DNA of 35,850 nt from an uncultured Candidatus Saccharibacteria bacterium (GTDB lineage Bacteria; Patescibacteriota; Minisyncoccia; Phycocordibacterales; UBA918), in contig CAYRMF010000001.1 of assembly GCA_964425475.1 (NCBI GenBank), positions 1 to 35,850 of the forward strand, read 5' to 3'. Within the stretch, counting starts at the first letter, position 1. Each line of letters opens with the position of its first letter. Below the pieces are notes generated by a model. The model was not told the DNA's origin. It made no database searches and was given only the letters and a program-made list of their open reading frames with translations. Of the stretch, positions 27 through 35,850 are shown in pieces. The translations under genes and the position numbers were made by a program.

Positions 27-86
27 GTTTTCTCACAGGGTAACCCTGTGTATTATTTGTTTTCTCACAGGGTAGCCCTGTGTATT
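27..86. repeat. Two tandem 28-bp direct repeats, each a hairpin CACAGGG-N3-CCCTGTG
   Basis: GTTTTCTCACAGGGTAACCCTGTGTATT at 27..54 and GTTTTCTCACAGGGTAGCCCTGTGTATT at 59..86 are 27/28 identical, and the single difference lies in the loop. Each has a 7-bp stem. T-rich tracts follow each hairpin on the + strand, so they read as tandem intrinsic terminators for a convergent + strand gene left of the window. They also start 4 nt past the uvrC stop. Confidence 0.7.
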
Positions 87-35456: not shown

Positions 35457-35560
35457 AACGAAATCAGCGTAAAAGCTATCTGTACACAGAGGTGGAAGTA
35501 TTCATTGTGGCGTTCCATATCTCAGTACTATCGGAGGTACTCTGAACGTAAGACAAATGA

Positions 35561-35591
35561 AATCCCTTACAGGGACTGTTCAGGTTGTATG
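35561..35591 (+). repeat. Copy 1 of a 31-nt repeat AATCCCTTACAGGGACTGTTCAGGTTGTATG
   Basis: Read directly. It contains overlapping small palindromes TCCCT-tac-AGGGA and ACAG-gga-CTGT, and it ends in ATG. Confidence 0.9.
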
Positions 35592-35652
35592 CTAGTTTCT
35601 TCCTTTGGTCGAAACTATCGACAACCTCGATTAAAGTGGTCTATACCACTTT

Positions 35653-35683
35653 AATCCCTTACAGGGACTGTTCAGGCTGTATG
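35653..35683 (+). repeat. Copy 2 of the 31-nt repeat (30/31 identical to copy 1)
   Basis: AATCCCTTACAGGGACTGTTCAGGCTGTATG, 92 bp after copy 1. Confidence 0.9.
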
Positions 35684-35821
35684 ATAGTTTATTTCGTTTT
35701 ACTCATAAACTATCGACTGACAATCGAGTGAACAAAATAAATAAACACTTTTATTTATTTTTGAGCGAGTGCTGTCAGGAAGCTTTGCTTACAGCCTCTT
35801 TTTCATGTGCCCCGCACATGA

Positions 35822-35850
35822 AATCCCTTACAGGGACTGTCCAGATTGTA
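35822..35850 (+). repeat. Copy 3 of the repeat, truncated by the window end (27/29 identical to copy 1)
   Basis: AATCCCTTACAGGGACTGTCCAGATTGTA, 169 bp after copy 2. It is preceded by a 9-bp-stem hairpin TTCATGTGC-ccc-GCACATGAA. Confidence 0.85.

Follow-up and report, generated by a model that had tools for sequence, protein, structure and literature searches.

A repeat array at a contig end of a Candidatus Saccharibacteria genome is one locus of an apparently undescribed, dispersed family of three-hairpin modules

The stretch of DNA analyzed here, called the window, comprises positions 1 to 35,850 of contig CAYRMF010000001.1 from an uncultured Candidatus Saccharibacteria bacterium (assembly GCA_964425475.1), and ends in a small array of direct repeats located upstream of an operon for cohesin-type surface proteins. 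In the original prediction, made from the letters alone, the repeats were taken for a repeated structured non-coding module, with a core far better conserved than its stems, and they were connected to tiny peptide genes or to regulation of the operon. The question raised by the locus is what the repeated unit is, and whether it belongs to the operon at all. The module is borne out by the results reported below. The array is not a purely local one, nor is it specific to the cohesin operon, and it adds a locus to what is apparently an undescribed family of three-hairpin insertion modules. In the following, the window is contig C1 (1-35850) of the own genome, G000 (904 kb in 78 contigs, 92.8% complete); other contigs of this genome carry the prefix C, and genomes of relatives the prefix G.

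The 19-mer AATCCCTTACAGGGACTGT is found on the + strand at 35561, 35653 and 35822, where the three repeat copies had been placed, while dinucleotide shuffles expect 0.00 copies. A repeat search of the window defined a 36-nt family with spacings of 92 and 169, the third copy being broken off by the contig end at 35850. Each repeat heads one copy of the module, and the three copies stand in tandem, one short, one long and one truncated; the spacing is irregular because unit 1 is a short variant and unit 2 a long one, with an inserted arm of 76 nt. On the + strand each unit is made up of hairpin A, the junction CTGTTC, a helix (P2) enclosing ATGA, hairpin B and TCGA, and hairpin C, for a length of about 90-170 nt (92 nt for the short and 169 nt for the long variant of the window). 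In the family, the invariant CTTACAG is framed by a variable 3-4-bp stem to form hairpin A, which is followed by CTGTTYAGGTTGT-ATGA, by hairpin B, which varies in length, by TCGA-ACAACCT and by hairpin C, with a variable stem and a loop which is often CCC. Besides CTTACAG, the motifs CTGTTYAGGTTGTATGA and TCGACAACCT are invariant. The features of the array are the following.

35563-35575, + strand: hairpin A of unit 1, TCCCT-TAC-AGGGA, with the invariant CTTACAG in a variable covarying stem; 5 pairs, all doubly changed across the family.
35576-35581, + strand: junction CTGTTC of unit 1, conserved and single-stranded; its columns are nearly invariant.
35582-35627, + strand: helix P2 of unit 1, AGGTTGT (35582-35588) with ACAACCT (35621-35627), which covaries in other copies; it encloses ATGC, hairpin B (TAGTTT 35593-35598 with AAACTA 35612-35617, covarying) and TCGA.
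35631-35654, + strand: hairpin C of unit 1, TTAAAGTGG-tctata-CCACTTTAA; hairpin and flank together correspond to an rplK gene end in reverse complement.
35655-35667, + strand: hairpin A of unit 2, of the same sequence as in unit 1.
35674-35797, + strand: helix P2 of the long unit 2, AGGCTGT (35674-35680) with ACAGCCT (35791-35797), a compensated T-to-C and A-to-G change; inside it lie ATGA, hairpin B (35685-35712), TCGA and the arm inserted in this variant.
35717-35789, + strand: inserted arm of unit 2, CTGAC (35717-35721) with GTCAG (35774-35778); it recurs in 4 other long copies.
35734-35761, + strand: AT-rich hairpin of 12 bp within the arm, conserved in the long variant.
35781-35789, + strand: small hairpin AGC-TTT-GCT of the arm.
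35801-35823, + strand: hairpin C of unit 2, TTTCATGTGC-ccc-GCACATGAAA, with the CCC loop typical of the family; the same hairpin is found at the orthologous site in G001, G014 and G016.
35824-35850, + strand: unit 3, broken off, with hairpin A (35824-35836), CTGTCC and the 5' strand of P2, AGATTGT (35843-35849).
35552-35562, + strand: flank ACAAATGAAA, a remnant of the 3' arm of hairpin C (compare GCACATGAAA), which marks the proximal end of the array; the same flank is found at the array end on contig C35.
34419-35435, - strand: first gene of the cohesin-type surface operon, given as context, with the array in its upstream region; gene and reverse-complemented units point the same way.

The stem TAGTTT/AAACTA, already proposed, corresponds to hairpin B, and the two proposed terminal hairpins (AAAGTGG..CCACTTT and TTCATGTGC-ccc-GCACATGAA) are both hairpin C; the AT-only palindrome is real as well. 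Two other proposed pairings were replaced. The first TCGA of the supposed TCGA..TCGA hairpin is a conserved junction, and the ACAACCT following it is the 3' strand of P2, which pairs with AGGTTGT after the repeat; in unit 2, CTGAC pairs instead with GTCAG. Similarly, the supposed hairpin GCTGT..ACAGC with its run of five T found no support; ACAGCCT pairs with AGGCTGT in a compensated version of AGGTTGT/ACAACCT. Other compensated versions of P2 are AGGTTCT/AGAACCT, AGATTGT/ACAATCT and GGGTTCT/AGAACCC. The arm of unit 2 lies between TCGA and the 3' strand of P2; its other copies are those of C33, C50, C62 and G020, and its CTGAC/GTCAG helix undergoes a C-G to U-A change.

Further copies, whose existence the original prediction had left to be checked, are present genome-wide. 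A relaxed pattern search detected about 20 of them on 16 other contigs of the own genome, and a covariance model built from 15 short copies yielded about 33 matches there (E < 0.01), most of which are solitary. The model matches in 20/20 genomes of the genus and 24/24 of the family, at 1-43 copies per genome, and in 10/16 other families of the order; an even, class-wide sample of 150 genomes added one further family, with single copies. When all species genomes were scanned with a 17-mer, copies confirmed by the model were found only in Kaiserbacteria, Paceibacterota and Patescibacteria metagenome-assembled genomes, some of which are labelled Saccharibacteria; the matches in other phyla were chance matches, not confirmed by the model.

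Conservation of the fold was evaluated on an alignment of 45 distinct copies from 20 genomes. Stem cells are paired in 96.6% of the cases, compared with 72.9% in shuffles, and none of 500 shuffles reached the observed value; 24 of the 25 stem pairs show double changes, and sliding the partners out of register lowers pairing to 34-49%. The covariation anticipated for the stems is thus statistically strong. Comparison with Rfam 15 gave no gathering-score match in the window, where only chance-level matches appeared at E up to 10, and only chance-level matches at E up to 0.1 for 18 unit-bearing loci. A full-text literature search found no description of the module, and the family is apparently undescribed.

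The tiny open reading frames (ORFs) opened by the repeats do exist. The ATG is nearly invariant, embedded in GTATGA, and more than 20 codons are open in most units, as would be expected of tandem micropeptide or type I toxin genes, with or without a leader. Across 77 units, however, the conserved TCGACAACC falls, relative to this ATG, in frame 2 in 40, in frame 1 in 22 and in frame 0 in 15, being read as YRQP, IDNL or STTS; an early stop occurs in 8/77, and the copy on C35 encodes M-T-K-stop. The micro-ORFs are non-coding: no single frame is kept for the conserved core, all three being used. The N-Y-R shared by the two ORFs of the window results from translating the conserved nucleotides AACTATCGAC. 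The reading of the units as promoter-operator cassettes for the cohesin operon could appeal to the promoter-like CTTACA-16-TATGAT (9 of 12 positions), but this was found once against 1.3 times expected in shuffles, a chance level, and the units are not tied to the operon. Peptide genes and cassettes alike are thus very unlikely.

A degenerate array of the CRISPR (clustered regularly interspaced short palindromic repeats) kind is more improbable still, close to negligible. The direct repeats do recall such arrays in their length of about 31-36 nt, their position at a contig end and the small hairpin within the repeat, but the spacing of 92 and 169 nt is not a uniform repeat-spacer period, and the presumed spacers are homologous structured parts, common to the units and to about 30 dispersed single copies; moreover, most copies of the module are solitary.

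The orthologue of the first cohesin-operon gene was located in 19/20 genus members, and the site upstream of it holds zero, one or at least three units, in either orientation. The closest relative, G001 (88% amino acid identity), carries at least three identical units of 92 nt, with P2 AGATTGT/ACAATCT and an assembly gap within the array, reaching the terminator of the upstream gene. G014 has 1 unit, G016 only a remnant of hairpin C followed by other repeat families, G004 and G008 units in the opposite orientation, and six other relatives none. Unit 3 of the window (CTGTCCAGATTGTA) matches the units of G001, so that the sequence beyond 35850 probably consists of at least one more short unit, followed by a terminator of the G001 type. 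We infer that the array, lying between the upstream gene's terminator and the cohesin-operon promoter, is carried there as a passenger and is no dedicated regulator. Other dispersed repeat families occupy the same intergenic regions (loci L061, L065, L071 and L077, of G016, G006, G015 and G008, upstream of the cohesin orthologue; also L044 and L048, of G017), two examples being GGTGCCCGAAAAATAAGGAGCGAAGCGAC..TTTTTCGAGGCCG and CCGTGGCCAGAAATTA..AGCGAAGCGAC..AATTTCTGAG.

The module is a discrete block of about 94 nt, present or absent between nearly identical genomes. The unit at C21:13722-13816 is absent from G001, where the flanks are 97-99% identical; the filled site contains a block of 94 nt, from the base of hairpin A to ..TCTCAC, in place of GGC. 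Likewise, the unit at C24:5166-5273 is absent from both G014 and G001, with the junction at a stop codon (..CTGGTGA|GAAAG). The module also multiplies head-to-tail, and pieces of previous targets survive as fossils in its copies. In unit 1 of the window, a 38-nt segment exactly matches the 3' end that rplK has in the relative G020 (minus strand, GGGATTAAAGTGGTATAGACCACTTTAATCGAGGTTGT). The match extends over the last six rplK codons (G I K V V and the stop), the inverted copy that follows them and the beginning of P2. The own rplK, on contig C24, now has a different end, and a similar copy follows it. Since unit 1 carries the G020-type end and the own gene ends otherwise, the unit descends from an rplK-linked module and carried off a piece of its former target. 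At this locus (C24:1-1100, L187) rplK (L11) is not followed by rplA, and the next gene is convergent; the own rplK ends in ..GVKVI*, and beyond the first module lies a displaced, older-looking end (GTGAAAGTGGTATAG..), which gives the impression that the module took the place of the gene's last codons.

Modules are preferentially located at gene 3' ends and at tRNA genes, in the latter case with their junctions in the T-loop and together with duplicated tRNA ends. In the complete genome G017, which has 39 ordinary tRNA matches, 17/29 units lie at most 400 nt from a tRNA gene, compared with about 3% expected from the zone of the 39 tRNA genes; in the own genome, 15/33 lie at most 500 nt from one. 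Units stand between copies of tRNA ends, some direct and some inverted. In the downstream type, the tRNA and its terminator come first. Next are the acceptor 3' strand, copied in inverted form, and hairpin C, then T-stem and T-loop, likewise inverted, P2 with hairpin B, and hairpin A; the tRNA end, repeated directly from TC of the T-loop onwards, closes the series. Examples are tRNA-Met (with two modules at a period of 155 nt), tRNA-Cys, tRNA-Lys, tRNA-Leu and tRNA-Ser. In the upstream type, represented by tRNA-Gln in G017 and by C62 and C37 in the own genome, tRNA positions 1-51 are followed by a unit inserted exactly in the T-loop, and about 35 nt with a promoter-like box lead to the intact tRNA. 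The direct repeats in G017 measure 17-20 nt for tRNA-Cys, 20 nt (twice) for tRNA-Met and 22 nt for tRNA-Ser, and cover positions 1-51 for tRNA-Gln, while the C37 unit is flanked by an exact 31-nt repeat of the 5' part of tRNA-Arg.

Lone CCC(C)-loop hairpins of some 21 nt, in many cases ..AGTC-cccc-GACT.., were also observed (C13:263, C27:14510, C45:9, C62:577, C41:3068, C49:314, C53:4601). They are inserted in tRNA genes or fragments (D loop, junction of T-stem and acceptor, immediately before the 5' end) and at other places, and could represent either a mini-element of their own or a detachable hairpin C. The assembly of the own genome contains only 22 tRNA genes and one transfer-messenger RNA, and many of its contigs begin or end in tRNA genes or units (C6, C10, C21, C26, C27, C38, C45, C50, C62); modules and duplicated tRNA parts are probably the cause of this fragmentation. 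An unusual or split tRNA was considered and rejected, as aragorn and the Rfam tRNA model give only ordinary tRNAs, plus fragments beside the units.

The tRNA repeats suggest another explanation, according to which the units are fossil attachment (att) sites, left by repeated phage- or island-like integrations into tRNA genes, the cargo having been deleted since. A T-loop crossover class of tRNA-gene att sites was reportedly described by Williams in 2002. Like such sites, the module shows direct repeats of tRNA 3' ends starting from the T-loop (17-22 nt) or of tRNA 5' parts (19-51 nt), displaced tRNA fragments and tandem stacking at one tRNA gene, the flanking tRNA repeats being the classic mark of att sites; a scar of this kind, a tRNA-end direct repeat from a crossover in the T-loop or anticodon loop, is found in G017 and at C37. 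In contrast to att sites, the tRNA end is additionally copied in inverted form, clean 94-nt blocks occur at non-tRNA sites as well, and the whole element measures 90-170 nt. Integrase and cargo were not found between the att-like repeats, which enclose only 90-170 nt without ORFs, and neither was ever seen attached. The genome has one tyrosine recombinase and no serine recombinase, and only 3 of 2.9 million viral contigs of IMG/VR matched the 17-mer, by chance, none being confirmed by the model. Finally, a three-hairpin structure kept by compensatory change is not expected of dead att sites. The explanation is therefore unlikely.

We favor the reading that the module is a mobile DNA repeat which encodes no protein and homes to T-loops and gene ends, with a probability of about 0.58. 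It would spread as DNA, without a gene of its own, by making use of short homologies between its ends and those of the target (TC.. of the T-loop, GTGA..); a host enzyme, another enzyme or template switching during replication might be the agent. The stems would be kept perfectly complementary at the DNA level, through recognition as hairpins or cruciforms or through templated correction of palindromes. In agreement with this, the two classes of non-Watson-Crick pairs are equally rare among the roughly 2,500 paired cells of the stems: G.T occurs 62 times and A.C 58 times (21 and 16 in alignment A2, 41 and 42 in alignment A3). Selection acting on RNA usually tolerates G.U far more than A.C. The equal rarity means that no RNA strand can be inferred, and the symmetry argues for constraint on both DNA strands or for templated palindrome correction.

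A number of observations weigh against such a mobile repeat. At the C21 filled and empty sites there are neither a clear target-site duplication nor clear terminal inverted repeats, but only CTC(C)AC microhomology. No enzyme able to move the module was found; besides one Xer-like tyrosine recombinase, the census of the own genome turned up neither a serine recombinase nor a reverse transcriptase. The stems differ widely between copies and yet stay paired, which is unusual for a decaying selfish repeat. RAYT-like Y1 proteins were rejected as movers, since unit counts in 40 relatives show no relation to Y1 genes: G012 (13 units) and G019 (18 units) have no Y1 match, while G034, G031 and G039 have Y1 genes and no units. 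The own genome contains two RAYT-like Y1 genes, one of which is flanked by a different palindrome, CACAGGGTWACCCTGTG, and not by units. Moreover, at rplK, its most widely shared site, the module looks like a maintained, transcribed element. The module starts inside its last codons, always co-directionally, in about 20/30 relatives (16 by the covariance model and 4 more by eye; ACCTTGC/ACAAGGT is one of the P2 variants). Pairing joins the stop codon and the 3-4 codons before it to an inverted copy located just downstream, in which changes of the codons are mirrored. An intrinsic terminator follows the module in at least 6 loci, whereas it comes directly after the stop codon in genomes lacking the module. 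With a terminator 3' of it, the module is part of the rplK transcript there, and is either old or repeatedly renewed.

These rplK data also speak for the main rival, a multi-copy functional RNA module, with its reverse complement transcribed as trailer of tRNA genes or 3' untranslated region of genes such as rplK and its dispersal secondary. The RNA, closed by a stem with the upstream RNA end, might protect or process 3' ends or serve as a platform for protein binding. Orientation points the same way: the reverse complement of the units runs with the tRNA in 16/17 cases in G017 and with the flanking ORFs in 6/7 clear cases in G000. This bias and the rplK trailer argue for an RNA role, opposite to the G.T/A.C symmetry, and the strong conservation of structure with differing stem sequences would fit as well. 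On the other hand, G.U and A.C would not be expected to be equally rare in an RNA, orthologous sites differ in whether, how often and in which orientation units occur, many copies are placed beyond terminators, and no Rfam model matches. We regard a functional RNA as the less probable reading.

Cores of hammerhead, twister, pistol and hatchet ribozymes were not matched by eye, and Rfam was negative. A kink-turn bound by L7Ae is doubtful: the consensus (C-stem, 3-nt bulge, tandem G.A/A.G) fits GGTTG-TAT-GA../..TC-GA-CAACC on the strand read here only and is broken by unit 1 (ATGC), and no Ribosomal_L7Ae homologue was found in the own genome, which is 92.8% complete.

The preferred reading, a mobile repeat encoding no protein, can be compared with known systems. 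Like the REP/BIME elements associated with RAYT, the REP-associated tyrosine transposases, the module is a small extragenic hairpin repeat in tens of copies, often tandem and often at gene 3' ends, which has no gene of its own and a conserved fold. It differs in consisting of three hairpins and a long-range helix (92-170 nt), whereas a REP is one palindrome of 20-40 nt, in lacking a GTAG or CGTC head, and in its relation to RAYT, as the own RAYT-like gene is flanked by CACAGGGTWACCCTGTG and Y1 genes are uncorrelated with unit counts. The attC sites of integrons are 57-141 nt long and their function depends on a folded single strand. As in attC, structure rather than sequence is conserved in the module, and stems and length are variable; but GTTRRRY/RYYYAAC core sites are absent (neither ACAACCT nor GTTGTAT fits), there is no IntI-type integrase, only the Xer-like recombinase, and no cassette ORFs lie between units.

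Compared with miniature inverted-repeat transposable elements, the clean filled/empty site again offers microhomology only, in place of a target-site duplication. The arms of hairpin C are readable as terminal inverted repeats in arrays, while solitary copies hold the whole hairpin on one side. A model equating terminal inverted repeats with hairpin C arms fits some loci only, as does a snap-back of hairpin C with a GGG loop. An autonomous partner was looked for in the arrays of G017, where no ORF is bracketed by units. A further comparison is with the mobile hairpin repeats of organelles and reduced genomes. Double-hairpin elements occur in fungal mitochondria and palindromic elements in Rickettsia. 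Repetitive hairpin-forming elements are described in sponge mitochondria (PMC2800124). Like the module, such repeats are tiny, encode no protein and invade intergenic regions and gene ends of small genomes, often beside tRNA genes. Their sequences are unrelated to the module, which differs in keeping a defined multi-helix architecture and invariant junction motifs across a bacterial family and in capturing target ends.

As to CACAGGGTWACCCTGTG, it is an unrelated palindrome of 17 nt with 13 copies in the genome, including window positions 34-50 and 66-82, C10:11215, C10:11907, C16 (4 copies), C58 (2) and C53:34. The two copies on C10 flank a RAYT-like Y1 (HUH) gene of 212 amino acids (C10:11263-11901), as REPs flank RAYT genes. 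The second RAYT-like Y1 gene, of at least 197 amino acids, lies at a contig end (C7:23820-24412) and is preceded by another hairpin, ACATGTTGGGTTTacgaAACCCAACATGT. The first 50 bases of the window contig are identical to the first 50 of contig C53, the palindrome copy included, so that this contig end, too, lies in repeated DNA. UvrB is encoded within the window, which identifies the genome as bacterial.

Combining these elements, a broader proposal can be advanced tentatively. The module could be a new kind of mobile element without protein, or the cis part of an unrecognised recombination system, which would home to tRNA T-loops and gene 3' ends, copy the target end both ways, thereby generating a closing stem, and spread in streamlined genomes of the Candidate Phyla Radiation without integrase, reverse transcriptase or transposase of a known family; the rplK copy would perhaps be a functional source gene.

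For annotation, the module explains recurring tiny ORFs, pseudo-tRNAs and "arrays" in these genomes, which ought not to be annotated as peptide genes or CRISPR arrays. It reshapes tRNA loci, leaving duplicated and truncated parts of tRNA genes, and probably breaks assemblies. The genomes of Patescibacteria are among the most streamlined bacterial genomes known, and the lineage nonetheless retains 20-40 copies of a precisely folded module of 90-170 nt. If the module is a functional RNA, it would constitute a large uncatalogued family on tRNA and ribosomal-protein transcripts; if it is mobile without a known enzyme, it would point to an unrecognised route of recombination through tRNA T-loops and gene ends.

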